Shown: positions 5,289-40,358 of the stretch, one piece after another
How positions within the stretch are numbered: the stretch's first letter is position 1
Layout: the number at the start of each line of letters is the position of its first letter
Assembly: GCA_038249705.1 (NCBI GenBank)
Contig: JBBSDC010000003.1
Location: 766 to 64,765 of the forward strand
Direction: 5' to 3'
Origin: Bacteroidales bacterium
GTDB taxonomy: Bacteria > Bacteroidota > Bacteroidia > Bacteroidales > UBA4417
Length of the DNA: 64,000 bases
Made by a program: the position numbers and the translations under genes
Notes under the pieces: model-generated
The model's database searches: none
Seen by the model: only the letters and a program-made list of their open reading frames with translations
Told to the model about the DNA's origin: nothing

Positions 5289-7352
5289 TTACGGACTGAA
5301 ATCGAAGCGCAATCCAAAAAAAATGTGACGAGGCAATCCCGGGTAATAGTAACGCGGCTCATTATTGCCAAATGCTACTGCATTTACAACCAGCATGGAA
5401 GCATAGCGGGTGTCGCTCAAGTTATTAACACCAGCATAAAAACGAAGAATCCCTGTTTTGTAAACAGGCAGTTTGGCTGAAATTTTTAAATCAGCAATAA
5501 AATAACGTGGATAGTCCAAAGAGTTTTTATCGGTAAGATATTGATCGCCAAAATACTGAAAGTTAGCGAATACCTCAAGCGAAGAAATTGGGCTCCATGT
5601 AAATTGCAGCAGTAAAGTTTGCGCCGGAATACCTGGTAAATCGTTGCCATCATACGAATTCCCATCATCGGAAAAATCAACAAAACGGTTTCGGGAAACA
5701 GTACCACTTAAATTGGATGTTAACTTGCCGGGGAAATGTGGCTTGTCGAAAAACCGGTTTTTCAACATAATTTCTATTCCATTATGACGTGTTTTCCCTG
5801 CGTTTGTACCTATAAAAATATCTTCGGTCACACGCTTGGTTACAAGCAAGTTATTGAGTTCTATCCAGTATAAAGCGATATCCAGTTCAAAGGCTTTATC
5901 ATAAAAATTTATGCGGGTGCCAATTTCATACTGGTATCCTTGTTCGGGCTTTATATCCGGATTTACATCTCCAGCAGGCAATAAAGTTTCCTCCGGCGAA
6001 GGAAGTGAAAATCCATGTCCGGCCGATGCAAACACCGCCAAATGTTTATTGGGAGCATAATTGATACCAATCCGTGGAGAAAAGATAAGAGGAAATTCTC
6101 TCGCGCCTCTCTGATCGCCATTGGTACTATAAAGATCGGTAAGCTTGTAGCTGATATGATTTGCGGCAGCAGCAAATGAAATACTCAGCTTACTGAGCGG
6201 CCGGTAATTACTTATTGCAAAAACATTGATCTGGTTGCGATTTTCGCGATTTTGGTTTACCAGGTTATCAGCCTTATCGAGTTTCCATTTGTACTGTTCA
6301 GTAATTATCTCGGTTCCAGCAACCAAATCCATCCTGTCAAAATAAAATGTCGCTTTTTCACGAATTCCTGCCGACATCACCTTGTCAGTCAAGTTGTTGA
6401 ACGGACGTTTTTCATATCCATCGTACCATTTACCAAAGACAGTAAACCGGTTAACAACCCTTTTCCGGATTTTGGTAACTACATTAATACCGGTCAAAAC
6501 TTTGCTGTACTTTTTATATCCACCTACTTCGAGCCAAGCAGCGGCAGCAGCTTCCGGATTATTTTCGAACTGAGTTTTACCCAACGAACTCGGGATTCCT
6601 GCATCAGTACTAATCACCATCAACAGGGGATTTATCTCCCAAAATTTATTTTTCCATTGCCCGGTGGAAAGGAATGAAGTTCGCTTATAGTGATTATTCT
6701 CACGGTATCCATCGGATTGTAGATGACCCAGACTGGCCCATAATGAATTGTTACTCTTATTAATTGTTCCCGAAAGATGAGTGTTCCAGGTATTGAAATT
6801 TCCATAAGTAGTATTCGCACCGATTTCACTTACCGATTTCGAAGGAGTGTAAATGTTTATAGCACCTCCAAATCCGGAACCATAAATTGCGGATGCAGGT
6901 CCTTTTATCACTTCCAATCGTCCGATACTCTGAATATCAATATCTTCGGGCGACGAAACACCATCGGAAGAAGTAAGAGGCATATCGTTCAGGTAGAATC
7001 GGATGCGGTTGGTATTGTAAGGAGTGCGGCTGCCCATTCCACGAATTACAATGCGGTTGGTCGCAAAAGTTCCGCTTTGTATGGTAATGCCGGGAATTGA
7101 ATTGAGTGCTTCTTTCAGGCTTGTGCCATCAGAAATATTTATTCCTTTGGGAGTCAGCAAAGAAATACTGCCAGGAATATGGTGGAAATCAGCGGTAAAC
7201 TGGTATGATTCTATCTTTACTTCACCGAGTAAAATAACTGAATCAGGCTCCCTGTCAGCTGCAGACGGATTGCCTGTTTCCTGAGCATTTCCTTTTACTT
7301 CGGTTATAATAAATAGCAGACTGATAATATACAACCGCAGGAATTTGATCAT
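5289..7352 (-). CDS. TonB-dependent outer-membrane receptor (no SusD partner)
   Basis: It has a signal peptide, a plug domain (IESYQF...VIKGPASAIYGSGFGGAINIYT) and a C-terminal beta-barrel ending GLRFDF. Confidence 0.85.
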   Translation of the reverse strand: MIKFLRLYIISLLFIITEVKGNAQETGNPSAADREPDSVILLGEVKIESYQFTADFHHIPGSISLLTPKGINISDGTSLKEALNSIPGITIQSGTFATNRIVIRGMGSRTPYNTNRIRFYLNDMPLTSSDGVSSPEDIDIQSIGRLEVIKGPASAIYGSGFGGAINIYTPSKSVSEIGANTTYGNFNTWNTHLSGTINKSNNSLWASLGHLQSDGYRENNHYKRTSFLSTGQWKNKFWEINPLLMVISTDAGIPSSLGKTQFENNPEAAAAAWLEVGGYKKYSKVLTGINVVTKIRKRVVNRFTVFGKWYDGYEKRPFNNLTDKVMSAGIREKATFYFDRMDLVAGTEIITEQYKWKLDKADNLVNQNRENRNQINVFAISNYRPLSKLSISFAAAANHISYKLTDLYSTNGDQRGAREFPLIFSPRIGINYAPNKHLAVFASAGHGFSLPSPEETLLPAGDVNPDIKPEQGYQYEIGTRINFYDKAFELDIALYWIELNNLLVTKRVTEDIFIGTNAGKTRHNGIEIMLKNRFFDKPHFPGKLTSNLSGTVSRNRFVDFSDDGNSYDGNDLPGIPAQTLLLQFTWSPISSLEVFANFQYFGDQYLTDKNSLDYPRYFIADLKISAKLPVYKTGILRFYAGVNNLSDTRYASMLVVNAVAFGNNEPRYYYPGLPRHIFFGLRFDFSP

Positions 7353-7458
7353 ACTCGATGCTCTGATTGTTTAAACTGATTTTTTTATACCCAATAAGTT
7401 AAAAATTTCGGGGTTCAGAATTCAAAGACCGAATTCCACGGAAATTTAAACTTCTGAA

Positions 7459-8904
7459 TTACTGCTTGCTCACTTTACCTTCAACGGGCATTAAACGTAC
7501 AATTTTTCCCGGACTTTCGATGGCAACATAAATCAATCCTTCGGGGCTGACTACCACATTTCTAACACGGCCAATTCCGGTTAAAAGTTTTTCGGTATGC
7601 ATGACTGAATGCTCGTTTACAACAACTCTTTCAATATATTTAAAACGTAATGACCCAACAAACAGGTTATTATGCCAGTTTTTGTAGCGGTCGCCGGTTA
7701 GGAAAGTCATGCCACAGGGAGCAATTGAAGGATTCCAGTAAAAAACTGGTTGCTCCATTCCTTCTTTTTCGGTTAGCTCAGTTATAACACTTCCATCGTA
7801 ATCGATACCATAACTGATAACAGGCCAGCCATAGTTTTTTCCGGGTTCGATGAGGTTAATTTCGTCACCTCCGCGTGGTCCATGCTCACTAACCCAAAGT
7901 TCGTTGGTAAGCGGATTTATACACGTTCCCTGCGGATTGCGGTGCCCATAACTGTATATGGAAGGCAAAGCACCTTTAGTGTTTACAAACGGATTATCTT
8001 TTGGAATGGAGCCATCATCGTTAATACGGTGTATTTTACCGTTTGCATTGTCGAGTTTCTGAGGAAAATCGAAATGCTGTCCGCGGTCGCCGATACCGAA
8101 AAACAAGTGCCCGTTTTTATCAAAAGCAAGTTTGCTGCCGAAATGATGTTGCTTGTACGTATTCGGATTACCTTTAAATATCACTTGCTGATCAACCAGT
8201 TTGTTCCCTTCAAGCCTTGCACGCATAATTGCTGTATTACCAAATGATTTGATTACTTTAGAGTCCAAAGCACTGTACGACATGTAAATCCATCCGTTCT
8301 TTTTGTAATCAGGATGCAGGCATACATCAAGTAAACCTCCCTGTCCGACTGCCATAATATCGGGTAAACCTTCGATAGGAGCTGAAAGTTTTCCGTTTGC
8401 AAACCGGTATAATATGCCGGAGCGCTCTGTAATAAGCAGATCGCCATTGGGCAAAAATGCAAGTCCCCAGGGTATATCTAATCCTGTAACAACGGTATCC
8501 ACAATAAATTGCTGTACTTCGCTTTCAATAAGCCCGGCTACAGTAACTGCTGGCTTCAACAGACTTTTATCTGCAGGAATACCTTTTTTTACATATGTGG
8601 CAAGGGCTTCAAGTTGGTCATCCGAAAATGTTTTAGCGAACGAAGGCATTCCCATATTCTCAATGCCATCCTTAATACTTTTTACAGCGGATGAGTTGTC
8701 TTTTTCATCCATCCATTTTTTGGCTGCAAATTTTTCGAGATTTTCGCCATGGCAACCGGCACAATAGGTCTGGTAATTTCGGGCAGCATCATTACTAACA
8801 ACTGCTTTTGGCACATCAGGCTTATGCTTTATGCATGTAGAGCCTATAAGTCCTAAGGAAACCAGCACTAATGTAAATGCTGCTAAAATATAAATCCGTT
8901 TCAT
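7459..8904 (-). CDS. cytochrome c domain fused to a PQQ-dependent (soluble glucose/sorbosone dehydrogenase family) sugar dehydrogenase
   Basis: The N-terminus has a signal peptide and the CAGCH haem-binding motif, with a downstream Met (MGMPSF). The rest is a six-bladed propeller typical of GDH-B/PF07995 (GLAFLPNGDLLITER, YSYGHRNPQG, GPRGGDEIN). Confidence 0.8.
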   Translation of the reverse strand: MKRIYILAAFTLVLVSLGLIGSTCIKHKPDVPKAVVSNDAARNYQTYCAGCHGENLEKFAAKKWMDEKDNSSAVKSIKDGIENMGMPSFAKTFSDDQLEALATYVKKGIPADKSLLKPAVTVAGLIESEVQQFIVDTVVTGLDIPWGLAFLPNGDLLITERSGILYRFANGKLSAPIEGLPDIMAVGQGGLLDVCLHPDYKKNGWIYMSYSALDSKVIKSFGNTAIMRARLEGNKLVDQQVIFKGNPNTYKQHHFGSKLAFDKNGHLFFGIGDRGQHFDFPQKLDNANGKIHRINDDGSIPKDNPFVNTKGALPSIYSYGHRNPQGTCINPLTNELWVSEHGPRGGDEINLIEPGKNYGWPVISYGIDYDGSVITELTEKEGMEQPVFYWNPSIAPCGMTFLTGDRYKNWHNNLFVGSLRFKYIERVVVNEHSVMHTEKLLTGIGRVRNVVVSPEGLIYVAIESPGKIVRLMPVEGKVSKQ

Positions 8905-9168
8905 GCTATTTCAGATTAAAATTTTAATACCGAGTGAATTAAACGTAAATATAATCATGTTTGTTCTGAAATGAAATAAAGTAAGAGAATAATTTGGTAG
9001 TATCAGATATTAAAACAGTGACTGACAAATTAAGCCAGATAATAACCAAATCATTTACAATATGTTAGACTTAAAAATGGAATTCTTTTAACACTTATCA
9101 CGTACAGGAGTTTAAACCTTTAGCTGCAATTGATTGTTAGACACAACATCATCGCCAAACTTATTACA

Positions 9169-9669
9169 ATGCGGGTAATTACTCTTTTTCTGTTTTCTGT
9201 TTTACTTTTCTGTCAAAATGTGTTTGCACAGGCAGGGAAGGAAAAGCCCGTTCAGGTCGTAAATTTCGACCAGCTTGAGCCGCATCTGCATCATAATAAT
9301 GATACTGTTTATCTTATAAATTTCTGGGCCACGTGGTGTGCGCCTTGTATAAAAGAATTACCCGCCATAAAAGCAGTGGAAGAAAAGTATGCGAACGAAA
9401 AATTTAAAGTATTGCTCGTTAGCCTCGATTTGCCCAATGAACTTTCGAGCAGGCTGCAGCCTTTTATAAAATCAAAAAATATAACTTCCGATGTTATATT
9501 GCTCAACGACCCGAACCAGAACCGATGGATCAATAAAGTTGATCCTGACTGGTCGGGAGAAATACCTTTTACTTTAATCTATGGGAAACATTTCAGAGAA
9601 TCGTATTCGCGCACATTCACTTTCGAAGAACTTGATTCAATTATTAACCTAAAACTAAATTTACCATGA
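9169..9669 (+). CDS. TlpA-like thiol:disulfide oxidoreductase (thioredoxin fold)
   Basis: It has a WATWCAPC active site and a signal peptide starting at the internal ATG (MRVITLFLFSVLLFCQNVFAQ). The 9130 TTG extension is rejected. Confidence 0.75.
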   Translation: MRVITLFLFSVLLFCQNVFAQAGKEKPVQVVNFDQLEPHLHHNNDTVYLINFWATWCAPCIKELPAIKAVEEKYANEKFKVLLVSLDLPNELSSRLQPFIKSKNITSDVILLNDPNQNRWINKVDPDWSGEIPFTLIYGKHFRESYSRTFTFEELDSIINLKLNLP

Positions 9670-10274
9670 AAATTGTCATAACAATCATCTTCATTTCGCT
9701 GTTCTCACTTTCATCTGCATTTTCGCAAGGATACAATGTAGGCGATAAAGCAACCGGGTTTAAACTTAAAAACATCGATGGAAAACTGGTTTCTCTCAGC
9801 GATTACCCTGATGCGAAGGGATTTACAGTAATATTTACATGCAATCATTGTCCATATGCCATTGCATACCAGGATCGGATAATTGAAATTGACAAAAAGT
9901 ACAAACCGAAAGGCTATCCTGTGATTGCAATCAGTTCAAATGATCCAGAATTTAATGCAGAGGATTCGTATGAAAATATGATTGTACGTGCAAAGGAAAA
10001 GGGTTACACTTTTCCATATTTGTTCGACGAAACACAGGCCGTTTGTTTAAATTATGGAGCAAAACGCACTCCACAAGTATTCTTACTGCAAAAAACAGGA
10101 AATGACCTGATAGTGCAATATACAGGAGCTATTGATGATAATTACCAGGATGCTGCCGCTGTTACTTCACCTTTCCTTGCTAACGCTATTGATGCATTAC
10201 TTGCAGGCAAAAAGCCTGAACCCTCAGCAACCAAGGCTATTGGCTGCTCAATTAAGATGAAACAAGCTAAGTAA
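9666..10274 (+). CDS. secreted thioredoxin-fold/AhpC-TSA-like redoxin
   Basis: It has a signal peptide and a CxxC motif (FTCNHCPY). Its start overlaps the upstream stop (ATGA), which implies translational coupling. Confidence 0.7.
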   Translation: MKIVITIIFISLFSLSSAFSQGYNVGDKATGFKLKNIDGKLVSLSDYPDAKGFTVIFTCNHCPYAIAYQDRIIEIDKKYKPKGYPVIAISSNDPEFNAEDSYENMIVRAKEKGYTFPYLFDETQAVCLNYGAKRTPQVFLLQKTGNDLIVQYTGAIDDNYQDAAAVTSPFLANAIDALLAGKKPEPSATKAIGCSIKMKQAK

Positions 10275-10295
10275 TTGATGAATTATTAACGTAAA

Positions 10296-10326
10296 AGAGG
10301 CTCTCAGACTGAGGCCTCTTTTTTTT
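10296..10326 (+). terminator. rho-independent terminator
   Basis: agaggc / gcctct stem followed by a T8 run, directly after the redoxin stop. Confidence 0.7.
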
Positions 10327-10515
10327 GTGCTAAAAACTATTAACGAGGAGATATGAAGTTCTTTTGGAATCATTTTAATCTGTTGATTTGAGTAACTTTA
10401 TGCATTTGAAAGTTTTCTGAAATCATTTTTGGTCATTCTATTAAGAAGCAATATCTTTAACAAAATTTTTCTAAAGTATCTCCCAATGAAAATAATTATC
10501 CTAAACCATATTGCA

Positions 10516-11850
10516 ATGAAATCCATCCAAACATTACTGTTCATCAGTTTAGCGCTACTGATGTCATCCGGCACTTTTGCCCAATCGAAAATCAACGCTA
10601 ACGATATAAAAGATAAAATGCAATGGTTTGCCGATGCCAAACTGGGCATTTTTATCCATGCAGGTATTTATGCGGTTGATGGAGTTGACGAATCATGGAG
10701 TTTTCATAATAAAAAGATCAGTCATGCCGATTACATGAAACAACTTAACGGCTTTACGCTTAAAAAATACGATCCGGCCATGTGGGCTGATCTGATAAAG
10801 GAAAGTGGTGCCCGCTATGCGGTTATAACAACCAAACATCACGACGGTGTAGCCATGTACGATACTAAAATGAATAACCTGAGCAGTGTGAAGGCAACCC
10901 CTTCAAAAAAGGACATGATTTCACCTTTCTTCGCTGAGTTGCGTAAACGCGATATAAAATGCGGTGCTTATTACTCGTTAATAGACTGGTCGTATGCAGA
11001 TTATCCAGGCTTTTTGAAAGATAGTTCGAGGTACAAAATTGAAAATGATTACGATCGCTGGAACCGCTTCCGGCAGTTCTTTCAGGGACAGATAAGGGAA
11101 ATCAGTACACAATTTAAACCCGATCTCTGGTGGTTTGATGGCGATTGGGAACACAGCGCAGAACAATGGGAATCAGAAAAAGTGCGCAATATAATCCTGG
11201 TAAACAACCCTAATGCAATCATTAACAGTCGTTTGCAAGGGTATGGCGATTACGAAACACCGGAACAGAATTTCCCTGTATCGCGCCCGAAATTCAACTG
11301 GTGGGAACTTTGCATGACAACTAATGATAACTGGGGTTTTCACAACGACAACAACTGGAAAACGCCTTACGAAGTAATTACTATTTTTGTGGATGCAGTT
11401 GCTAACGGTGGAAACCTCTTGCTGGATATGGGACCGAGAGAAGATGGCACCATTCCTGAAGAGCAGATTCATGTACTGAAAGAACTCGGTGCATGGAACA
11501 AAAAGAACGGCGAAGCTATTTTCAACACCATCGGAGGCATCCCTCAGGGTCATTTTTATGGCCCGACAACCATGTCGAAAGACTCAACCACGCTGTATCT
11601 TTTTCTTCACGGACAAACCAGCGGGCAAATTATGCTGAAAGGCCTCGATAATAAAATTCAGGAGATTACAGTAGTTGGAAATGAAACGAAACTTACTCAT
11701 AAAATTGTCGGGAAAATTTCGTGGAGCCATGTTCCTGGTCTTGTATATATTGATGTACCTTCGTTTGTGCTCGATAAATATGTTACAGTTTTGAAATTAA
11801 AGCTGGATAAACCAGTGAAACTTTACCGGGGACAGGGTGGCTTTAACTGA
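10516..11850 (+). CDS. alpha-L-fucosidase, GH29
   Basis: GIFIHAGIYAV, TTKHHDGVAMYDT and LWWFDGDW are typical GH29 motifs. A signal peptide begins at the internal ATG at 10516 (MKSIQTLLFISLALLMSSGTFAQ). Confidence 0.85.
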   Translation: MKSIQTLLFISLALLMSSGTFAQSKINANDIKDKMQWFADAKLGIFIHAGIYAVDGVDESWSFHNKKISHADYMKQLNGFTLKKYDPAMWADLIKESGARYAVITTKHHDGVAMYDTKMNNLSSVKATPSKKDMISPFFAELRKRDIKCGAYYSLIDWSYADYPGFLKDSSRYKIENDYDRWNRFRQFFQGQIREISTQFKPDLWWFDGDWEHSAEQWESEKVRNIILVNNPNAIINSRLQGYGDYETPEQNFPVSRPKFNWWELCMTTNDNWGFHNDNNWKTPYEVITIFVDAVANGGNLLLDMGPREDGTIPEEQIHVLKELGAWNKKNGEAIFNTIGGIPQGHFYGPTTMSKDSTTLYLFLHGQTSGQIMLKGLDNKIQEITVVGNETKLTHKIVGKISWSHVPGLVYIDVPSFVLDKYVTVLKLKLDKPVKLYRGQGGFN

Positions 11851-11911
11851 GAGCGAAACCCGTGACAAAATTATCCTACCCGATAGTATGCTGAATATCA
11901 AAACCAATTAA

Positions 11912-12556
11912 CGGAATGAGAAGGATCGTTTCTACCTTTATCAATCGCAGTGGAGACCAGATTTTCCGATGGCACACATTCTGCCACACTGGAACTGGCC
12001 GGAACGCATTGATTCAGTTACCCCGGTTCATGTGTATACTTCGGGTGATGAAGCCGAATTATTCCAGAATGGAAAAAGCCTCGGCAGGAAATCGAAAACT
12101 CCGGGAAAGGATTTCCGATTGGTGTGGGATGATGTAATTTATCAACCCGGAGAGTTGAAAGTGATAACCTATAAAAACGGAAAGCAATGGGCTACCGATG
12201 CAATGAAAACAACCGCAGAGGCATCAAAACTAACACTTTCAGCTGATAAAAATAAAATTGCAGATAACGGTACTGACTTTGTATTTATAACTTTGAAAGT
12301 TCAGGATAACGATGGACTTACAGTTCCCCGCTCCCACCCTCTTATTAAATTTGAGATTGAAGGCCCGGGCGAAATAGTAGTTACCGATAATGGAGATGCA
12401 ACCAGTTTTGTACCTTTCCGAAGTCATGAGCGTGAGGCATTTAACGGAATGGCACTCGTGATCGTTAAAGCTAAAACAGGCGCCAAAGGCAACTTTAAAG
12501 TAAAAGCGGTAAGTGAAGGATTAATTTCGGATGAAGTAACTGTGTTTGCTGAGTAA
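11912..12556 (+). pseudogene. 5'-truncated remnant of a GH2 beta-galactosidase (C-terminal ~215 codons only)
   Basis: The frame opens right after a TAA at 11909. It reads KDRFYLYQSQWRPDFPMAHILPHWNWP...VHVYTSGDEAELFQNGKSLG, then an Ig-like domain. This is the post-TIM-barrel part of GH2 enzymes. The ~600 N-terminal codons, including the catalytic domain, are absent. Confidence 0.6.
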
Positions 12557-12605: not shown

Positions 12606-13859
12606 ATGAACAGAAGGAAATTTATTCAAAACAGTATTACCGCTGCCGGAGCATTTACCATTGTTCCGGCTCATGTATTAGGCGGCAGTAATCACATCGC
12701 GCCCAGCGATCAGCTTACAAAAGCCATTATTGGTGTTGGCGGCATGGGGCAAGGTCACATTAATTACCCCGGTTCGCGGCTCACAGCCATTTGTGATGTG
12801 GATAAAAACCATCTGAAATCAGCCCTTGAAAAATGCCCTCCGGGAACCAAAACCTATCACGATTACCGCGAGTTACTGCTCGACCCTTCGATAGATATTA
12901 TTCACATTGCAACGCCTCCGCACTGGCACGGCATCATGAGTGTGGATGCAGCCAAAGCAGGTAAAGACGTATGGTGCGAAAAACCAATGACGCGCACAAT
13001 CGGCGAAGGCCTGCGGGTTCGTGAAGCTATGGCTCAGCATGGCAGAATATTCCGCCTTAACACATGGTTCAGGTTTGCTGATAACTTTTACGGAATGGGT
13101 ACACCGGTTGAACCAATTAAAAAACTGGTTCAAAGCGGTTTGTTAGGCTGGCCTTTAAAAGTTACCGTAAATGCGGCTACAGGTTTTAACTGGAAATTCT
13201 ACTGGGTTGGAAATACTGGTCTTGATATCCAGCCGGTTCCTGAAGAGCTTGATTACAATATGTGGTTGGGTCCGGCTCCTTTTAAACCGTATAACCCACA
13301 TCGGGTTCACAGCACTTTCCGTGGATATTGGGATTACGACGGTGGTGGCCTTGGCGATATGGGGCAACACTATCTCGACCCGGTTCAATACATCCTTGGT
13401 AAGGATAGTACCAATCCTGTAAGTGTTGATGTAGATGCTCCCCAGCAACACCCCGATGCGGCAGGAACATGGAAAAGAATAGAGCTTACCTATGCCGATG
13501 GTTGCAAAATTATACTCGATGGCGAAAACAGAGACACCGATGTACCCTATATTGAAGGTCCTGACGGGAAATTGTTCCCCGGATTTCATTCTGATATTCC
13601 TTATCTGGAGAAAAAACTCGCATCATTCCCTGATCCTGAGCCTCAGATCACCGATTTCGCTGAATCGGTGCGAACACGACAAAAATTTGCTTTGAACGAA
13701 GATAACGGTTTCAGGTCGTGTACGCTCGTAAATATGGCTATTATTGCCGTAAGGCTTGGCCGTTCGCTGCAATTCGATCCGGATAAATGTGAATTCATCA
13801 ACGATTCTGCTGCAAACCAAATGGTTAACCAGCCTATGCGAGCTCCCTGGAATATCTGA
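12606..13859 (+). CDS. Tat-exported Gfo/Idh/MocA family NAD(P)-dependent oxidoreductase
   Basis: It has a twin-arginine signal (MNRRKFIQNSITAAGAF), a Rossmann loop (GVGGMGQGH) and the EKP motif (WCEKPM). Confidence 0.8.
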   Translation: MNRRKFIQNSITAAGAFTIVPAHVLGGSNHIAPSDQLTKAIIGVGGMGQGHINYPGSRLTAICDVDKNHLKSALEKCPPGTKTYHDYRELLLDPSIDIIHIATPPHWHGIMSVDAAKAGKDVWCEKPMTRTIGEGLRVREAMAQHGRIFRLNTWFRFADNFYGMGTPVEPIKKLVQSGLLGWPLKVTVNAATGFNWKFYWVGNTGLDIQPVPEELDYNMWLGPAPFKPYNPHRVHSTFRGYWDYDGGGLGDMGQHYLDPVQYILGKDSTNPVSVDVDAPQQHPDAAGTWKRIELTYADGCKIILDGENRDTDVPYIEGPDGKLFPGFHSDIPYLEKKLASFPDPEPQITDFAESVRTRQKFALNEDNGFRSCTLVNMAIIAVRLGRSLQFDPDKCEFINDSAANQMVNQPMRAPWNI

Positions 13860-13880
13860 TAAAATCTAAAAAGCATTAAA

Positions 13881-16800
13881 ATGAAAAAAAATATAGTAAT
13901 TCTACTGGTTGCCCTCACATTTTCAATGGGTTCATTTGCCCAGGTCCAAAAAACCGATCAACGCACCATCGAAACAAAAATTGCGGATTTCTTAATGAAA
14001 CTTCCGGCACAGAATTCCGCTGATCATGATAAACTTATGACTGAGCTTTCCGCGATGGGCGAACCAGCTTTTACAGGCATTGCAACTAATCTATTACCAC
14101 CGGGACAAAGCAACGATCTTGCATCGCGTTATGCCATAAGCGGACTGGTAAAATACCTGGCTAAAGGCAATGATAAAGAAAAAATGAAAGCTTGCGCAGA
14201 TGCACTATGCAAATCCATCGAAAGCTCAAAATACAATGAGGTAAGGGATTTCCTGCTTCAGGAGCTTCAGTATGTTGCCGGAAATGAATCAGTTGCCACT
14301 GTCAGCAGCTTATTGTTAAACGAAAGACTTTGCGATCCGGCTGCACGAGTTCTTGTCAGAATCAATACCGATCAGTCAAATAAAGTTTTGATGGATGCTC
14401 TGCCAACAGCGCCTTTTAAACAACAACTTATTATGGTTGAAGCTCTTGGCCAGACAAAATTTGTTCCGGCAACTGAAAAAATAAGGGAGCTGGCGACTTC
14501 AGAAAATACTGAAATGAAAAAGGTTGCATACAGGGCGCTGGCTGAGTCCGGTGATTTTACTTCAACAGCAATGTTTGCCGCTGAATCGCGGAAGGCAGGT
14601 TATACTTACGAACCTACTGATGCTCTCGGATCTTATATTTTATTGTTACAGAGGCTTTCTGAAACAGATCAGAGAAAAATTGCCGAAACGAGCTGCAAAC
14701 AGCTGATTGAAGATAAAACTGTTCCCACTCCAGCCCGCTCTGCATTTTTGAAATTATATGCTGATATAGCTGGTGAAAATGCTTTCCCTTCATTAATGAA
14801 AGCACTCGATTCGCCTGATAAACAATATCGCATGGCGGCTGCGATAATCTTAAAAAAATTCAATTCTCCGAAACTTATCTCTCAGGTCCTGAAAAAGGCT
14901 AAGAAGACCAAAAATCCTGAATTAAAAGCCGAATTAATGCCGGTACTTACCGGTTACAACGATGAAAACTGCACTGATTTTATATTGGCATCGCTGAATG
15001 ATAAAAACAAACTTGTTCAGTTGGCAGCAATTCCGGTTGCATCTAAATCAGCTAAATCAATGGCCGCTGCTCCGCTTATTCAACTTATAAATTCCGGTGA
15101 CGAAACAATTATCCTTGCCGCAAAAACCGCATTACTTACTATCGAAGGACCAGCTGTTACTGACGAAGTTGCCAGGGTTTTGCCCCAATCGCCGGTTAAT
15201 TCCCGGATAGCATTTATCGAAATACTTGCTAAAAGGAATGCGGCTAAGCATTCATCATTGGTTTTTAATGAAGCTTCGGATGCCGATGTCAATGTGCGCC
15301 TTGCTGCAGCTAACGCATTGCAACAACTTTGCACTGCGGAAGATGCAGAAAAAATTGCGAAACTGCTTAACAAAGCATCCTTACAAAATGAAATCACCGC
15401 TTTGCAGGAAACTTTGTTTGCATCTGTAAAACAATCAGGAAATCAGGAGAATCAGGTTGCACTCATTGAAGGTTTGATGAATGAATACGTTGGCAAACAA
15501 CTCCTTTATTATCAGGTGCTTGCTAAATCAGGCGGAATAAAATCGCTTTCCATCGTTGAAAATGCGTTCGAAAATGGACTATCTGAGCAGAAAGAAGCTG
15601 CTTTAAAAGCACTTACAAATTGGAGTGATTATTCAGTTCTTGAAGCGCTTTTCAGTATCAGCAAAAACAATCCAGATAAAAACTTCCAGACAATGGCTCT
15701 GGAAAGTTATATTTCAGGTATAAACCAATCGAAAAACACAACAGATCAGAAAGTCCTTATGTTCCGTAAAGCAATGAAACTTGCCAGTTCGAATAAACAC
15801 AAAAAACTGGTTCTACAGGAAATTCCGAAAAACAGCACATTACTTTCGCTGGTTTTCGTTTCGCAATTTCTTGATAGTAGCGAACTGCAACAAACTGCTG
15901 TTCAGGCAGTAAATGCAATTGTGTTGGCTAATCCCGGTTTATATGGATCTGTTGTCGAAGAAATTGCACTTAAAGCAATCAATCTTAATAAGGATGCTGA
16001 GGCAAATTACCAGAAGCAAAATATGCTCAATCACCTGGCTGCCCTTCCAAAAGCGAATGGGTTCGTAAGCATGTTTAATGGCAAAGATCTTACTGGGTGG
16101 AAAGGGTTGGTTGAAAACCCGGTAGCACGGGCTAAAATGAACCCTCAAACCCTGGCCGAAAAGCAAAAGCAGGCAGACGAACGAATGTGGGGATCATGGA
16201 AAGCTATCGACGGGGTTTTAGTGTTTGAAGGAAATGGCGACAATCTCTGTTCTGAAAAATTGTACGGTGATTTTGAACTAATTCTCGACTGGCGCATGGA
16301 AGCCAAAGGCGACGGCGGAATTTATCTACGCGGTTCACCACAGGTACAGACCTGGGATACATCCAGGATTGAAGTGGGTGCACAGGTGGGTTCCGGCGGT
16401 TTGTACAACAACCAGAAAAACGAAAGCAAGCCGCTTGTAGTAGCCGATAATCCTGTTAACGAATGGAATACATTCCGGATTTTAATGACAGGCGAAAAAG
16501 TTATCGTTTACCTGAATGGAAATTTGGTTGTCGACAATGTGACCCTCGAAAATTACTGGGATCGCAATATCCCTATTTTCCCGACAGAATCTATTGAATT
16601 ACAAGCACATGGAACAAAACTCGAATTCAGGGATATTTATATACGTGAAATTCTCCGTCCTGAACCATACCGTGTCAGTAAAGAAGAAGAGCAGGCTGAA
16701 TTTGTTCCTGTTTTTAATGGAATTGATATGACAGGCTGGTCGGGAAACCTAACCGATTATACAGCTATTGATGGAATGATTGTTTGCGATCCTTCGAACC

Positions 16801-17291
16801 AGGGATCAGGAAACCTTTATACGGCTAATGAATACAGCGATTTTATTCTGCGATTTGAATTTCAGCTTACTCCCGGTGCCAACAACGGCCTGGGAATACG
16901 AACTCCCCGCGAAGGCGATGCTGCTTACGTGGGAATGGAATTGCAAATTCTGGATAACGAAGACGATATTTATAAAAACCTTCAACCCTATCAGTACCAC
17001 GGTTCCGTGTATGGAGTTATTCCAGCCAAACGGGGATTTCAAAAACCTGTTGGCGAGTGGAATTATCAGGAAGTGCAGGCTATAGGAAATAAAATTAAAG
17101 TGATGCTTAACGGGGAAGTGATCCTGGAAGGTGATATAGCCAAAGCCAGTAAAAACGGAACAAAGACAATGGATAAAAACCCACATCCCGGATTACTGAA
17201 CAAATCAGGATACATTGGATTCCTTGGGCATGGCTCCCCGCTGAAATTCAGAAACCTGCGTATAAAAGACCTTGAAAAACAGAGGAGGTAA
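13881..17291 (+). CDS. secreted HEAT/ARM-repeat protein with two C-terminal DUF1080 (3-keto-disaccharide hydrolase-like) domains
   Basis: A signal peptide is followed by ~720 aa of Ala/Leu-rich helical repeats. Two jelly-roll domains follow: NGFVSMFNGKDLTGWKG...IELQAHGTKLEFRDIYIREI (about 16056..16650) and EFVPVFNGIDMTGWSG...IGFLGHGSPLKFRNLRIKDL (about 16700..17270). Confidence 0.7.
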   Translation: MKKNIVILLVALTFSMGSFAQVQKTDQRTIETKIADFLMKLPAQNSADHDKLMTELSAMGEPAFTGIATNLLPPGQSNDLASRYAISGLVKYLAKGNDKEKMKACADALCKSIESSKYNEVRDFLLQELQYVAGNESVATVSSLLLNERLCDPAARVLVRINTDQSNKVLMDALPTAPFKQQLIMVEALGQTKFVPATEKIRELATSENTEMKKVAYRALAESGDFTSTAMFAAESRKAGYTYEPTDALGSYILLLQRLSETDQRKIAETSCKQLIEDKTVPTPARSAFLKLYADIAGENAFPSLMKALDSPDKQYRMAAAIILKKFNSPKLISQVLKKAKKTKNPELKAELMPVLTGYNDENCTDFILASLNDKNKLVQLAAIPVASKSAKSMAAAPLIQLINSGDETIILAAKTALLTIEGPAVTDEVARVLPQSPVNSRIAFIEILAKRNAAKHSSLVFNEASDADVNVRLAAANALQQLCTAEDAEKIAKLLNKASLQNEITALQETLFASVKQSGNQENQVALIEGLMNEYVGKQLLYYQVLAKSGGIKSLSIVENAFENGLSEQKEAALKALTNWSDYSVLEALFSISKNNPDKNFQTMALESYISGINQSKNTTDQKVLMFRKAMKLASSNKHKKLVLQEIPKNSTLLSLVFVSQFLDSSELQQTAVQAVNAIVLANPGLYGSVVEEIALKAINLNKDAEANYQKQNMLNHLAALPKANGFVSMFNGKDLTGWKGLVENPVARAKMNPQTLAEKQKQADERMWGSWKAIDGVLVFEGNGDNLCSEKLYGDFELILDWRMEAKGDGGIYLRGSPQVQTWDTSRIEVGAQVGSGGLYNNQKNESKPLVVADNPVNEWNTFRILMTGEKVIVYLNGNLVVDNVTLENYWDRNIPIFPTESIELQAHGTKLEFRDIYIREILRPEPYRVSKEEEQAEFVPVFNGIDMTGWSGNLTDYTAIDGMIVCDPSNQGSGNLYTANEYSDFILRFEFQLTPGANNGLGIRTPREGDAAYVGMELQILDNEDDIYKNLQPYQYHGSVYGVIPAKRGFQKPVGEWNYQEVQAIGNKIKVMLNGEVILEGDIAKASKNGTKTMDKNPHPGLLNKSGYIGFLGHGSPLKFRNLRIKDLEKQRR

Positions 17292-17728: not shown

Positions 17729-18607
17729 ATGATTAAGTATTCAATAAAAGATCTAGAAAAGATAACGGGTATCAAAGCTCACACAATACGTATCTGGGAA
17801 AAAAGATATGGTATAGTGAAACCTTCGCGTACAGAAACAAATATCCGGTTTTATTCTGACGAAGATCTCCGTCATCTGATGAATGTAGCTATTCTGAACA
17901 AATTTGGATATAAAATTTCCAATATTCAGAGCATGTCAGTAGCTGAAGTTGCTCAAAGTGTGGTTGAATTATCAAACCAGGATATTGACAATGACCATCA
18001 GATAGATAATCTTGTTATGGCCATGATAGAATTAGATGAACAGAGATTCGATAAAATCACTTCTTCTGCTATTATTAAAAATGGATTTGATGATACTTTT
18101 GAGCATTTACTCAAACAATTTCTTGAAAAAATTGGCGTACTCTGGCAAACCGGAAGCGTAAATCCAGCCCAGGAACACTTTATATCACAACTTATAAGGC
18201 AGAAACTTATACTGGCAATTGACGGGCAAAATGAAATTAAGACTACTCACAAAATATTTCTGCTGTTTCTGCCCGAAAACGAATACCACGAACTGGCTCT
18301 GCTCTATATGTATTACCTTATTAGAAAAGCGGGACATCAGGTTATTTATCTGGGACAAAATGTTCCGCTCAGCAATTTAAAAGATATTTTCGAAATACAC
18401 AAAATTGACTATTTACTTAGTTCAATTGCATCGAAGCTTTCAGCAGAGGCAATTGCCGAATTTTTCGAAGAGTTCAACCTTCTTTACAGCCAAAAACAAC
18501 TTTTACTTGGAGGAAGCAGCCTGCAACATAATACTGACTTGTTACCTTCAAATACTACTTTCTTCAATTCCATAGATGAATTTACTGAATTTCTTGCAAA
18601 AGTATAA
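17729..18607 (+). CDS. MerR-family transcription regulator with a C-terminal cobalamin-binding domain (CarH/LitR-like)
   Basis: It has a MerR HTH (YSIKDLEKITGIKAHTIRIWEKRYGIV). GVLWQTGSVNPAQEHFIS matches the four-helix-bundle Trp region. LPENEYHELALLYMYYLIRKAGHQVIYLGQNVPLSNL aligns with the CarH E-x-H lower-ligand motif (His codon at 18287..18289). Confidence 0.75.
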   Translation: MIKYSIKDLEKITGIKAHTIRIWEKRYGIVKPSRTETNIRFYSDEDLRHLMNVAILNKFGYKISNIQSMSVAEVAQSVVELSNQDIDNDHQIDNLVMAMIELDEQRFDKITSSAIIKNGFDDTFEHLLKQFLEKIGVLWQTGSVNPAQEHFISQLIRQKLILAIDGQNEIKTTHKIFLLFLPENEYHELALLYMYYLIRKAGHQVIYLGQNVPLSNLKDIFEIHKIDYLLSSIASKLSAEAIAEFFEEFNLLYSQKQLLLGGSSLQHNTDLLPSNTTFFNSIDEFTEFLAKV

Positions 18608-18896: not shown

Positions 18897-19403
18897 ATGA
18901 CACAAATAGAATTCGATCATAAGTTGATAAGTCTTTATCAAAACCTGGAATATTATGCTAATTTGCTCACATCGAACCGTGAAGAAGCAAAAGATCTTAT
19001 TCAGGATACCTACCTGAAGGCTCTGGCAAACCGCGATAAATTTGCTGCCGATACCAACCTCAAAGCCTGGACCTATACAATCATGAAAAATACATTCATC
19101 AATAACTATCGCCGCAATCAGAAAGCAAATACGATTATTGATAGTACTGAGGATTTATTTTACCTGAATATTCCGCGTAAATCAGATTTTCCTTCACCTG
19201 ACTCAAGGTTTTCGGAAAAAGAAATTAAGAAAAGTATAGCTAAACTGGATGCAGATCAACGCATGCCTTTCGAGATGCATAACCAGGGATATAAATACAA
19301 GGAAATTGCTGATCATTTAAATATTTCGATAGGTACCGTGAAAAGCCGTATTTTCTTTACCCGTCGTAAACTGATGGACACACTGAAAGATTTTGCTGTA
19401 TAA
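18897..19403 (+). CDS. ECF-type RNA polymerase sigma-70 family factor
   Basis: Region 2 (DLIQDTYLKALANRDKF...LKAWTYTIMKNTFINNYRR) and the region 4 HTH (YKEIADHLNISIGTVKSRIFFTRRKL) are both present. Confidence 0.85.
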   Translation: MTQIEFDHKLISLYQNLEYYANLLTSNREEAKDLIQDTYLKALANRDKFAADTNLKAWTYTIMKNTFINNYRRNQKANTIIDSTEDLFYLNIPRKSDFPSPDSRFSEKEIKKSIAKLDADQRMPFEMHNQGYKYKEIADHLNISIGTVKSRIFFTRRKLMDTLKDFAV

Positions 19404-26665: not shown

Positions 26666-29600
26666 ATGCTCGAAAAAATTATTGATTTCAGTATCCGTAA
26701 CAAACTGATTGTTATTCTTTTCACTTTAACCATTTCAGCATTCGGGGTATATGCCATTTTACGTATCCCGGTGGGCGCAGTTCCCGATATTACCAATAAC
26801 CAGGTTCAGGTTATTACTACTTCCGGCAATTTATCAACGCAGGAAATAGAGCAGTTTATAACAGCGCCGGTTGAACTCGAAATGGCGAATCTGCCCGGAG
26901 TTGTCGAAATTCGGTCTATTTCGAAATTCGGACTTTCGGTTGTGACTATTGTTTTTAACGATAAGATAGGTACTTATCTTCCCCGTCAGCTTATCGCTGA
27001 AAAGATCAAAGCCGCCTCTGCCAACATTCCCGAAGGTTTTGGCACACCCGAAATGGGGCCAATTACAACCGGATTAGGCGAAATATACCAGTATATCCTT
27101 GATGTAAAACCTGGTTTTGAAGGGAAATATTCGGCCATGGAATTGCGTACCATACAGGATTGGATTGTAAAACGTCAGTTATCGGGCATCAATGGTGTGG
27201 TTGAAGTAAACAGTTGGGGCGGGTTTCTGAAGCAATACGAAATTGCAATTGATCCGGCACGTATGAGGAGCATGAATATTACCTTGATGGAGGTTTTTGA
27301 AGCCGTTGAAGCCAACAACAGTATTTCGGGCGGCGCATATATTGAAAAAACCAACCAAAGCTATTTTATCCGCGGCGACGGACAGGTAAAATCGCTTGAG
27401 GATATTGAGAGCATGGTGGTGAAAAACAAAGGCGGAATTCCCATCCGTGTGAAAGAAATTGCTACTGTTCAATATGGGTATGCTAACCGGTTTGGAGCCA
27501 TAACAGCCAATGGCAAAGGCGAAAAAGTGTTAGGGCAGGTGATGATGTTGAAGGATGCAAATTCAAAACTGGTTATCAACGAGGTTAAAAAACGTGTTGC
27601 CGAAGTTCAGAAAAATTTACCGGAAGGTATTTTTATCAATCCTATTCTCGAACGTAGCGAATTGATTTCGCGTACTTCGTTTACCGTTGTCGAAAACCTG
27701 GTACTGGGATGCCTCATTGTTATTTTGATCGTAATCATTTTGCTTGGAAACGTGCGTTCGGCACTTGTAATTGCATCCATGATACCGCTAGCCTTGCTTT
27801 TTACGATTTCGATGATGTATGTTTTCGGTATCGATGCGAACCTGATGAGCCTTGGCGCCCTCGACTTCGGAATTATAATTGACGGAGCGGTTATTATCGT
27901 CGAATTTATAGCTATCAGGATAACTTCAGGCAAAGCGGCTTACGACAGGTTACACGGAGCTGAACGACAAGCTTTGTTAGATAAAATTACGTTTAAAGGA
28001 GCTACGCGAATGATGAGTTCGGCTATTTTCGGACAAATCATTATACTTATCGTTTTTATACCTATCCTTTCGCTCAGTGGTGTTGAAGGCAAAATGTTCC
28101 GTCCGATGGCACTGTCATTCAGTTTTGCAATTATCGGAGCTATGATTCTTGGATTGACCTGGCTTCCCGTTGCCGCATCGCTGTTCCTCCGGCCCGAAAA
28201 AGAAAACAAACGGAGCCTTTCGAAAATGATAATGAATTTTGCATATAAAACATATACGCCGGCTATGCAATGGTCGTGCAATCACAAACGCATTGTGCTT
28301 GGCTCGGCATTGGCATCATTAGTGCTGACTGCTTTTCTGTTTGCTCGAATGGGTGGCGAGTTTGTGCCAACACTCGATGAAGGAGATTTTGTGATTCAGC
28401 CGGTTTTGAAAACAGGAACTTCTCTTTCGAAAACTGTCGAAATGACAACCCGGATGGAAAATATTCTTATTCAAAAATTCCCGGAAGTAGATCAGATCGT
28501 TTGCCGCATCGGTGCAGCCGAAGTTCCTACCGATCCCATGTCGATGGAAGAAATTGATATGATCATTAAACTCAAGCCCCGGAAAGATTGGGTTTCAGCC
28601 AAAAACAAAGAAGACCTGGCTGATAAATTTAAAGAAGCTTTATCGGTAATTCCAGGCGTTGAATATGAATTTACACAGCCTATCGAGATGCGCTTCAATG
28701 AATTAATAACCGGAGTGAGGGCTGATATTGCCGTGAAAATATTTGGCGAAAACCTTGAATATCTTGATAAGAAAGCGTCCGAAATTAAAGAACTTATTGC
28801 TGACATACCTGGCGCTGCCGATATTATTCTCGAAAAAACTGCTGGTCTTCCACAAATGAACATAAAGTACGACAGGGATAAAATTGCTGCTTATGGGCTT
28901 AACATCCAAACACTTAACAGGTATCTCTCCATGGCCTTCGGTGGCGAAACTACCGGAATAGTTTTTGAAGGCGAAAAACGTTTTGATATGGTTGTGAGGC
29001 TGCAACAACAAAGTCGTAAGGACATTGACAATATCCGGAATCTACAGGTGCCTTTGCCTGAAGGCGACCAAATCCCGCTAAGCGAGTTGGCAGAAATTAC
29101 TTACACTGAAGGTCCGGCTAAGATTTCGCGCGATAATACGCACCGCCGGGTGGTGGTGAGCGTAAATGTACGAAACCGCGATTTACAGTCGGTGGTTGAA
29201 GATATTCAGGCTAAAATCAATAAAAATATCACTCTCGAACCTGGAAATTATATCTCTTACGGTGGCCAGTTCGAGAATTTAAAAAATGCCACCGACCGAC
29301 TGATGTTTGCCGTTCCGATTGCTCTGCTGCTGATATTTGTTTTCCTGCATTTTGCATTCAAATCATTTAAAGATGCCGTTATGATTTTTACCGCCGTTCC
29401 TTTGGCTACAGTCGGAGGTGTGCTGTTTCTTTGGATACGTGGTATGCCTTTCAGTGTGTCGGCAGGAATTGGTTTTATTGCGCTGTTCGGTATCGCGGTA
29501 TTAAACGGCATAGTGCTGATAGAGCATTTAAAAGAGATGAAACAGAATGGTATGACTAATATGCGCGAACTTATTCTGAAAGGCACCCGCGAACGACTGC

Positions 29601-40219: not shown

Positions 40220-40246
40220 TTTTGTAAATTCTGGATTAAGATTTTT

Positions 40247-40358
40247 AACCACTAAGGCACTTAGAAAATTAAGAGGCACTAAGAAAATAAAAAAAATTGT
40301 TTCAGTTTTGATCTTTCTTTTTTAAAAACCACTAAGGCACTAAGAACACTAAGTGACA
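40247..40358. repeat. array of CACTAAG heptamers, including a 15-bp exact duplicate (aaccactaaggcact at 40247 and 40327)
   Basis: Seven CAC(T)TAAG-like units were read directly in the selU / nifS-selD spacer. The selU stop codon lies inside the last unit. Confidence 0.75.

Follow-up and report, generated by a model that had tools for sequence, protein, structure and literature searches.

What could a predicted exported dehydrogenase and a giant helical-repeat protein, encoded side by side, be doing together? This question is raised by two genes in a 64,000-nucleotide stretch of DNA from a Bacteroidales bacterium (NCBI GenBank assembly GCA_038249705.1, contig JBBSDC010000003.1, positions 766 to 64,765), the whole of which is referred to here as the window. 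The first gene encodes Gfo417, a Gfo/Idh/MocA oxidoreductase with a signal of the twin-arginine translocation (Tat) type. The second encodes what we call the partner, in which a long HEAT-repeat module is followed by two DUF1080 domains, D1 and D2 (Table 1). Both open reading frames (ORFs) lie in the same frame of the + strand and stand where an original prediction, made by a model from the sequence letters, had placed them: an oxidoreductase and, 21 bp further on, a secreted protein of 1136 aa, each with its export signal. We find that the obligate pairing is that of Gfo417 with the HEAT module and not that of a Gfo protein with DUF1080. Tentatively, and with somewhat less than even confidence, we read the pair by analogy with characterised enzymes as a self-contained periplasmic two-protein module that would cleave glycosides by a 3-keto route; the HEAT arm would dock the dehydrogenase and hold the DUF1080 domains on a tether.

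The pairing itself is strict. In keeping with what had been proposed from the window, the two genes are adjacent in every other genome or contig examined. A Gfo-seeded scan covered 586 metagenome stretches with a Gfo relative, from which 80 loci with 78 unique Gfo sequences were kept. All 73 of the unique loci with at least 300 bp of downstream DNA carry a HEAT-module ORF directly downstream of Gfo417 on the same strand (profiles were built from our own alignments and the HEAT ORF had to start within 700 bp). Seeding with the HEAT module gave the same picture from the other side: Gfo417, at 65-96% identity, is directly upstream in 17/17 loci with upstream DNA, in one of them as an uncalled gene. 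Gfo-side seeds P0182 and P0233 lead to the same HEAT partner, and over all sources the adjacency is 87/87. A scan of genome contigs with a single protein query gave only 7 loci, all close relatives, and the broader statistics come from the metagenome scan. Junctions range from overlap to tens of bp, and elsewhere the genes may abut or overlap, as in loci L015 (Gfo end at 8254, partner start at 8254) and L020 (6000/6001). Going by the titles of the metagenome-assembled genome (MAG) records, the partner family (~1130 aa) is found in Niabella, Rubrolithibacter, Bacteroidales, Prevotellaceae, Azobacteroides and Draconibacterium, and also in Lentimicrobiaceae, Prolixibacteraceae, Sphingobacteriaceae, Aminicenantes and Omnitrophica. 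The chance that the adjacency is fortuitous or a lineage-specific accident is practically nil: it is refuted by the 73/73 and 17/17 loci across phyla, by their unrelated flanks and by the tight or overlapping junctions, and the pair has moreover been kept through local deletion and rearrangement.

That last point comes from close relatives of the window. Loci L008, L009 and L021 align with it at 84-88% DNA identity (in L008 the proteins are 95% identical for Gfo417 and 88% for the partner) and carry ~3.2 kb that is missing from the window. The extra stretch holds a full 857-aa GH2 in L008 and L021, and in L008 a BNR sialidase as well. The deletion junction in the window is at 11875-11929, where the BNR sialidase and the N-terminal ~650 aa of the 857-aa GH2 were lost. 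The downstream side is also rearranged: DNA similarity to L008 stops at 17278, at the end of the partner gene, and L008 continues with a 663-aa unknown protein, a GH29 and a GDSL esterase. Because the deletion upstream and the end of similarity downstream flank an intact pair, the Gfo417-HEAT pair is retained while its glycosidase neighbours are deleted or rearranged.

Which part of the partner is held constant can be read from its natural variants. Among 70 complete partners, 55 have the full HEAT module with D1 and D2, and 7 have a shortened HEAT module with both domains. Single domains occur as HEAT with D2 (3), HEAT with D1 (3) and shortened HEAT with D2 (1), and one partner is HEAT only. 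A phmmer search of the whole library with the HEAT region alone gave 436 cluster representatives matching end to end at E<1e-30. These fall into length classes of ~725, 930, 1060 and 1130 aa, in which Pfam finds HEAT alone, HEAT with one DUF1080, HEAT with an F5/8-type-C domain (NedA-like galactose-binding, CBM32-like) and a DUF1080, and HEAT with two DUF1080 domains. Three HEAT-only proteins (L019, L101 and L102) were traced to their contigs, and each stands behind a Gfo417 orthologue of 65-70% identity. The L101 operon reads AP_endonuc_2 (a TIM-barrel of the AL1/BT1 type), Gfo417, HEAT-only protein, a separate canonical DUF1080 lipoprotein and PIG-L, and it is the gene-fission counterpart of the HEAT-DUF1080 fusion. 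Since the HEAT partnership is conserved while the DUF1080 load varies (0, 1 or 2), the HEAT region is the core of the finding. The original prediction had treated the scaffold as an unexplained addition to an oxidoreductase-DUF1080 pair, and this has to be turned around. In two further metagenome loci, L060 and L074 (~7285-10717), the HEAT-2xDUF1080 gene is in two ORFs through a frameshift, a stop codon or a sequencing error. There the split gene is followed by two more Gfo-family paralogues, the first of which resembles the BT2158 type over its N-terminal ~277 residues.

The HEAT module is a single long solenoid. Pfam HEAT_2 matches the partner in three stretches with 82.2 bits (HEAT families PF13646/PF02985). 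AlphaFold2, run on residues 1-725 with 53 aligned sequences, gives an alpha-solenoid of 41 helices for residues 30-721, with a mean predicted local distance difference test score (pLDDT) of 92.1 and a predicted template modelling score (pTM) of 0.71. HEAT-like helical repeats had been predicted for residues 1-720, and the model (pLDDT 92) bears them out. The model of the full-length partner (pLDDT 90.2) adds two beta-sandwich domains, D1 and D2. With the Pfam profiles, the models uphold the domain map of HEAT repeats and two DUF1080 domains. At its N-terminus the partner has a Sec-type signal, MKKNIVILLVALTFSMGSFA followed by Q, from which a lipobox cysteine is missing, and pLDDT is low at residues 13-26. 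Foldseek with the HEAT model returned generic solenoids only (SF3B1, karyopherin-beta2 and CAND1 among them) at template modelling (TM) scores of 0.3-0.4. Among folds that serve as protein-protein scaffolds the HEAT fold is the classic one, and it is typical of the scaffolds of eukaryotes.

Conservation within the partner is uneven, the mean column value being 0.49 for HEAT, 0.73 for D1 and 0.75 for D2. The best-conserved stretch of the solenoid is its N-terminal part. Most natural HEAT deletion variants retain HEAT-module positions ~1-147 and ~597-680 (residues ~25-171 and ~621-704 of the window protein) and have lost the middle; the exceptions are L085, which has no aligned N-terminal segment, and L006, which has no positions beyond 625. 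The 'mini-HEAT' partners of ~600-760 aa (metagenome loci L030, L094, L053 and L085) are without the central ~420 solenoid residues. L030, L094 and L053 keep both ends, L085 keeps only the C-terminal ~100 HEAT positions, and all four carry DUF1080 domain(s). This suggests that the middle repeats are a dispensable spacer. A catalytic role for HEAT was considered and rejected: the invariant residues of the solenoid (P42, A85, F124, L150, A154, L480 and A673) are almost all small or hydrophobic, and the region is therefore taken to be structural.

Gfo417 is by far the better conserved of the two proteins. Its orthologues are 65-96% identical across phyla, and where it is 79% identical to its Niabella counterpart and 66% to that of a distant MAG, the partner is 53% and 33% identical. 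An alignment of 22 sequences has 164 invariant columns. Pfam recognises the N-terminal NAD(P)-binding Rossmann domain PF01408 (70.8 bits, cut-off 24) and the C-terminal domain PF19051 (GFO_IDH_MocA_C2; 481.6 bits, cut-off 23.3, profile positions 1-254 of 254). Throughout the 22 orthologues the GxGxxG motif (GVGGMG, G43-G48), the EKP motif (C124-E-K-P; E125-K126-P127) and the catalytic-type motif D251-x3-H255 are invariant, as are R3, R4 and F6 of the twin-arginine motif. The N-terminus, MNRRKFIQNSITAAGAFTIVPAHVLG, matches the Tat consensus (S/T-R-R-x-F-L-K) as N-R-R-K-F-I-Q, and Gfo417 aligns from residue 1-2 onward with the Tat-bearing BT_2158 family profile. The profile search gave no PF10518 match, so that the Tat call is made at motif level together with this alignment.

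The nearest characterised relatives of Gfo417 are glycoside 3-dehydrogenases. BT_2158_fam glycoside 3-dehydrogenase (NF058561, equivalog) is its top NCBIfam match, and its closest matches in the PDB (phmmer) are 8tdf (E 4e-29) and 8tdh (E 4e-26), over residues 29-260 only. To the same 8td series belongs 8tdi, labelled 'P2B11 glucuronide-3-dehydrogenase'. We take this series to come from the Nasseri/Withers study, which reports the AL3 structure. In the phmmer alignment to 8tdf, four AL3 sugar-pocket residues have invariant equivalents in Gfo417: R192 corresponds to K197, W195 to W200, D248 to D251 and H252 to H255. AL3 Gln161 is in a poorly aligned stretch and AL3 Tyr349, which serves OH-2, is in the unaligned C-terminal part; the mapping here, like that to BT2 below, relies on sequence alignments at 20-35% identity. 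The GFOR structures 1ofg/1h6a are also among the PDB matches (E ~3e-7). No GH109 structure is found among the 60 PDB sequence matches listed for Gfo417 (E<=1e-3), which indicates that GH109 is not a close relative and shows no more than that.

The DUF1080 assignment holds in the profile search, PF06439 matching the partner in two stretches with 272.9 bits (cut-off 26.8). D2 has its closest structures in 4jqt (E 2e-22), 3imm and 3s5q, all of them uncharacterised DUF1080 proteins, and matches the BT2157/AL2-type structures (8tda, 8v31, 8rr2 and 9fbe) at about 1e-9. D1 is more divergent, its top structure match being 4qhz at 9e-6. Of the hallmarks first reported for both domains, 'LQ.HG' is present in D1 (LQAHG) and not in D2, where the sequence is FLGHG and the whole family has Leu in place of Gln. 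In BT2 the channel is lined by E103, N134, E164, Q166, Y190, K245, Q273 and H275, and the contacts are made by His275 at O2, a metal at O3, Gln273 at O4 and Lys245 at O6 (Nasseri et al., 2024, bioRxiv 10.1101/2024.03.25.586180). The 8tda sequence was aligned by MAFFT with nine D1 and nine D2 sequences, and window numbering was taken from the family alignment. Q166, Y190 and H275 are kept in both domains (Q823, Y842 and H910 in D1; Q1022, Y1044 and H1117 in D2). D2 also keeps N134, in a conserved N1001/N1002 pair, and E164 (E1020), where D1 has Asp (D811) and Gln (Q821) in what amounts to a reciprocal swap, and D1 keeps Q273 (Q908). The O2/O3/metal core is thus kept in D1 and D2, while the O4 contact is lost in D2 and the O6 contact in both. 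From their sequences D1 and D2 look functional but not BT2157-like in detail, and the differences in contacts would fit sugars other than gluco-configured hexoses.

The DUF1080 fold resembles that of GH16 (Nasseri et al., 2024), and a DUF1080 protein, THTE_1561, is cited in PMC9007349 as having endo-xanthanase/lichenase activity. D1 and D2 might therefore be true GH16-like endo-glycanases, with HEAT binding the polysaccharide chain and Gfo417 oxidising or reducing the products; a long arm with two such domains would be well matched to a polymer, and variants with a carbohydrate-binding module (CBM) exist. We consider this improbable, as the GH16 catalytic motif is absent from the solved BT2/AL2 DUF1080 structures (Nasseri et al., 2024) and strict coupling to a Tat-type NAD enzyme would be left unexplained.

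The 3-keto reading of the pair is drawn from a system in which the chemistry has been worked out. There DUF1080 (AL2/BT2) is a 3-keto-alpha-glucoside 1,2-lyase and a 2-hydroxy-3-keto-glucal hydratase, a TIM-barrel enzyme is required for beta-glycosides, and the tightly bound NAD of AL3 is recycled by reduction of 3-ketoglucose (Nasseri et al., 2024). In the proposed cycle Gfo417 would fold in the cytoplasm with tightly bound NAD, be exported by Tat and oxidise a sugar of the glycoside at its C3-OH. The acidified C2-H would then be the point of attack for a DUF1080 domain, which would eliminate the aglycone or leaving glycan in a 1,2-lyase step, and a DUF1080 domain would hydrate the resulting 2-hydroxy-3-keto-glycal. 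Reduction of the 3-keto sugar by Gfo417-NADH would regenerate NAD+, so that the net reaction would be hydrolysis with no external electron acceptor. Such a redox-neutral cycle would be well suited to the periplasm, and to the anaerobic lineages in which the pair occurs. The DUF1080 lyase of the known system is alpha-specific, and the likeliest substrates would accordingly be sugars that are alpha-linked in complex glycans.

In this cycle the Sec-exported solenoid of ~700 aa would be the obligate second subunit. We infer, from fold and synteny only, that it binds Gfo417 and tethers the DUF1080 domains. The conserved N-terminal cap would probably dock the dehydrogenase, and the C-terminus would carry D1 on a 5-residue linker and D2 on a linker of ~15 residues. 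The two paralogues probably split the work, either as lyase and hydratase or between sugar configurations. In vitro, 3-keto intermediates isomerise rapidly and limit cofactor recycling (Nasseri et al., 2024); one assembly would keep labile intermediates and cofactor recycling together, and tethering would have a kinetic reason because 3-ketoglucose isomerises quickly. The wider form of the proposal is a stable obligate heteromer: one end of the solenoid would bind the Tat-type NAD-dehydrogenase, and the other would hold out interchangeable domains for lyase/hydratase activity or carbohydrate binding. We hold it as a possibility, well short of an even chance.

Several observations weigh against the 3-keto module. 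First, Gfo417 reaches 165.7 bits against the BT_2158_fam cut-off of 750, over profile positions 1-286 of 487, where a true member (L015:2364-3839, 491 aa) scores 885.9 bits. Gfo417 is 34% identical to that member over residues 1-260, nothing aligns further on, and its C-terminal ~155 residues do not align with AL3/BT2158. Because the score is under the cut-off and only the N-terminal part aligns, Gfo417 is, judged by its sequence, a sister subfamily of BT_2158_fam and not a member. Second, the DUF1080 domains fall outside the BT2157/AL2 clade, D1 keeping 4/8 and D2 5/8 of the BT2 active-site residues. E103 and K245 are missing from both (at K245, D1 has no equivalent and D2 is variable), and Q273 is Leu1115 in D2. 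Third, pTM falls from 0.71 for the HEAT model to 0.60 for the full-length partner, which therefore has no confident fixed geometry, and this suggests that the DUF1080 domains do not take up a single confident orientation. Fourth, the contigs of the HEAT-only loci L019 and L102 have no DUF1080 gene, so that Gfo417 and HEAT may function without any DUF1080. Finally, most loci sit in non-glycan, housekeeping surroundings. The 3-keto-glycoside module of the original prediction stands in part: the nearest characterised relatives, AL3/BT2158 and AL2/BT2157, do act in that pathway and canonical genes of it are recurrent neighbours, but neither window protein belongs to the characterised clades.

HEAT-only partners such as those of L019 and L102 could also mean that Gfo417 is a self-sufficient NAD-dependent enzyme, either a GH4/GH109-like glycosidase whose single active site would carry out oxidation, elimination, hydration and reduction or a GFOR-like sugar:sugar oxidoreductase, with the HEAT protein as a binding, localising or regulatory subunit and DUF1080 mainly lectin-like. 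The variable DUF1080 load, the F5/8 type C carbohydrate-binding domain that sometimes takes the D1 position, the missing BT2 residues, and the extreme conservation of Gfo417 with its own ~155-aa C-terminal region would all agree with this. It is nonetheless unlikely in our judgement. Conservation in D1 and D2 exceeds that in the rest of the partner, with invariant polar residues at the BT2 metal/O2/O3 positions, beyond the usual need of a binding module. AL3, to which Gfo417 is closest among characterised enzymes, is moreover a dehydrogenase and depends on lyases that are separate from it (Nasseri et al., 2024). The lack of GH109 among the PDB matches listed argues only against close kinship.

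Window genes are mostly housekeeping. The glycan context that had been claimed for the locus is present, with GH29 and GH2, but is decayed: upstream of the pair the close relatives have GH29, the BNR sialidase and full GH2 in this order, and in the window the ~3.2-kb deletion has left a 195-aa GH2 remnant. Among window ORFs of at least 150 aa there is no AP_endonuc_2 (TIM-barrel) gene and no further DUF1080 gene. Nor does the window contain the rest of the canonical cluster (BT2156-2160/AL1-AL5): a search of it found no TIM-barrel beta-lyase, second oxidoreductase or regulator. The original prediction had remarked on the missing isomerase-type lyase. No such TIM-barrel gene is indeed found in these ORFs, but this is not a gap, because the published DUF1080 enzyme is itself an alpha-glycoside 1,2-lyase and hydratase.

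Elsewhere, canonical-cluster genes adjoin the module in a minority of loci: ~10-15% of loci adjoin canonical 3-keto-glycoside genes, as in L015 and L101, and AP_endonuc_2 makes up 4/110 of the nearest neighbours. In L015 the pair comes directly after a cytochrome c, a DUF1080, a BT_2158_fam Gfo (491 aa), a DUF1080 and two AP_endonuc_2 genes. L020 has the order SusC-SusD-Gfo417-HEAT-DUF1080, with SusC-SusD directly upstream. The Niabella locus is flanked by GH20, NagB/PIG-L, glycosylasparaginase and GH123, L017 by GH78, and L019 by a heparinase-II/III-like gene, while in further loci the flanking genes are unrelated. A third conserved gene is not to be found: 118 Pfam families, mostly singletons, occur in the 110 flanking ORFs closest to the pair. 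Recurrent among them are Gfo (10, of which 7 have PF19051), ROK (7), AP_endonuc_2 (4), free DUF1080 (3), MFS (3) and Pirin (3).

The absence of a conserved third gene and the mostly housekeeping neighbourhoods may point to a housekeeping periplasmic function on a non-dietary or non-glycoside substrate, such as a cell-envelope or exopolysaccharide component, a cyclitol or an aminoglycoside-like compound. In favour of this, the window pair outlived the loss and rearrangement of the glycosidase genes on its flanks, Gfo417 shows a very high conservation across phyla (66-80% identity) that is not usual in substrate-diversifying CAZymes, and PIG-L deacetylases and a DegT aminotransferase adjoin some loci. 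We rate it as quite unlikely, since canonical 3-keto-glycoside genes, a SusC/D pair and exo-glycosidases recur beside the module and four AL3-type sugar-site residues have equivalents in Gfo417.

Table 1. Features of the two-gene locus and its upstream glycosidase context (window coordinates).
Feature	Coordinates	Strand	Basis
GH29 alpha-L-fucosidase, context	10429..11850	+	Pfam
GH2 glycosidase C-terminal remnant, 195 aa (DUF4982 + GH2_C5), context	11969..12556	+	Pfam, comparison with relatives
Gfo417, 417-aa Gfo/Idh/MocA oxidoreductase with PF19051 C-terminal domain	12606..13859	+	Pfam
Tat-type signal peptide of Gfo417, residues 1-26 (N-R-R-K-F-I, hydrophobic stretch, then AHVLG)	12606..12683	+	Motif read from sequence
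Intergenic spacer, 21 bp, operon-like junction	13860..13880	+	Sequence
Partner protein, 1136 aa: HEAT solenoid and two PF06439/DUF1080 domains	13881..17291	+	Pfam, AlphaFold2
Sec-type signal peptide of partner, residues 1-20, without lipobox Cys	13881..13940	+	Sequence
HEAT module, residues 25-722, alpha-solenoid of ~20 helical hairpins	13953..16046	+	AlphaFold2, Foldseek, homologue search
DUF1080 domain 1 (D1), residues 727-925, divergent PF06439, conserved helical insert (residues ~745-772)	16059..16655	+	Pfam, AlphaFold2, alignment
DUF1080 domain 2 (D2), residues 940-1131	16698..17273	+	Pfam, AlphaFold2, alignment

A few other genes of the window deserve mention. A gene at 7459-8904 (-) encodes a 481-aa fusion of a c-type cytochrome with a glucose/sorbosone dehydrogenase (GSDH, a PQQ-type beta-propeller), a predicted periplasmic sugar oxidiser, and adjoins a TonB-dependent receptor (5289-7352, -). 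It was considered as a redox partner of the pair and set aside: it is on the opposite strand, 3.7 kb off, and beside the pair in no other locus examined. In the census of 110 nearest neighbours GSDH was met a single time. The module is followed directly by a MerR-HTH and B12-binding regulator (17729-18607, +; CarH-like, possibly light/B12-responsive) and, further on, an ECF sigma factor (18897-19403, +). Both are probably unrelated to the module because this arrangement is absent from L008. A scan for promoters and terminators gave counts at shuffle expectation, Bacteroidota promoters being outside the scan's models.

Farther away, a single ORF of 1448 aa (26666-31012, +) joins an AcrB-type RND transporter (ACR_tran, residues 5-1035) to a TolC-like OEP (two stretches, to residue 1447) and is followed by an HlyD-type adaptor gene (31022-32149, +). 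As a fusion of inner-membrane pump and outer-membrane channel would be topologically odd, the long ORF may reflect the loss of a stop codon or an artefact of assembly. At 38015-40279 (-) a 754-aa fusion combines a class-V aminotransferase (NifS/selenocysteine-lyase-like) with selenophosphate-synthetase-type AIRS domains, and a rhodanese and P-loop protein at 40359-41399 (-) resembles tRNA 2-selenouridine synthase, which suggests a selenium-utilisation gene pair.

It was only in 2021-2024 that the 3-keto route came to be seen as a general alternative to Koshland glycosidases, and the characterised enzymes are all free and separately encoded. Here an extremely conserved Tat-type dehydrogenase is coupled 1:1 to a HEAT scaffold with downstream-acting domains. 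The family is large, phylogenetically broad and unnamed: clustering at 50% identity leaves at least 436 clusters of the HEAT module, and metagenome loci number in the hundreds. Were the two proteins to form the obligate heteromer, the result would be an 'oxidative glycosidase machine' of modular build that recycles its own cofactor. It would differ from the free-enzyme pathway of gut Bacteroides and would be widely distributed, in Bacteroidota, Acidobacteriota (Aminicenantes), Omnitrophota and further phyla. Should the scaffold channel the labile 3-keto sugars and close the NAD cycle, this would explain such chemistry in the cofactor-free periplasm of anaerobes, and two genes would make up a compact system able to cleave glycosides with broad specificity. 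Glycan-degradation annotation would then gain a new enzyme architecture where the present labels are 'HEAT repeat protein', 'DUF1080' and 'predicted dehydrogenase'. The strict synteny makes the function testable in cultured carriers (Niabella spp. and Rubrolithibacter).

How does the pair compare with systems already known? The original prediction knew of no characterised example. This holds, as far as the literature could be searched, for the HEAT architecture; the pairing of a Tat-Gfo with DUF1080 had already been published (Liu et al., 2021, PMC8121099; Nasseri et al., 2024). In the searchable literature no description was found of the Gfo417 subfamily, its 1:1 HEAT coupling or modular HEAT-DUF1080/CBM fusions. 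Eukaryotic HEAT scaffolds (PP2A A subunit, karyopherin-beta, CAND1 and SF3B1) share the alpha-solenoid fold and hold or wrap partner proteins. The likeness is at fold level only (~12% identity, TM 0.3-0.4), and unlike them the partner is bacterial, predicted to be periplasmic with a Sec-type signal, and fused to enzyme-type beta-sandwiches.

Among sugar-oxidising systems, LacABC/ThuAB (Caulobacter CCNA_01705; PMC9007349) is a periplasmic 3-keto system whose DUF1080 protein acts on the 3-keto-glycoside. It is, however, FAD/cytochrome-c dependent and needs the respiratory chain (PMC9007349), whereas Gfo417 is of the NAD type, occurs also in anaerobic lineages and comes with a HEAT scaffold. GFOR of Zymomonas mobilis is, as Gfo417 is predicted to be from its motif, a periplasmic, Tat-exported Gfo/Idh/MocA enzyme. 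As summarised in PMC8121099, GFOR holds non-dissociable NADP and works by a ping-pong mechanism between two sugars. Its relation to Gfo417 is very distant and confined to the Rossmann domain, and it has neither a HEAT/DUF1080 partner nor a PF19051 match.

The closest parallel is BT2156-BT2159 of Bacteroides thetaiotaomicron and AL1-AL4 of Alistipes, in which a Tat-type Gfo with PF19051 likewise stands beside one or more signal-bearing DUF1080 proteins of the periplasm. Gfo417 shares with AL3/BT2158 the D-x3-H motif and, at four positions that can be aligned, equivalents of AL3 sugar-site residues, and the window DUF1080 shares with BT2157/AL2 the core of N/D, E/Q, Q, Y and H. By analogy, recycling of NAD by the 3-keto-sugar as in the BT/AL system is plausible. 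Gfo417 differs from AL3/BT2158 in being shorter (417 vs ~490 aa) and alike over little more than its first half. The window is also without the TIM-barrel beta-lyase, the second cytosolic oxidoreductase and the SusR-type regulator of the BT/AL system. Its two DUF1080 domains, which are paralogous and divergent, are joined to a HEAT solenoid of ~700 aa for which the BT/AL system offers no counterpart, and it is this HEAT module, not DUF1080, that is the obligate partner of Gfo417.

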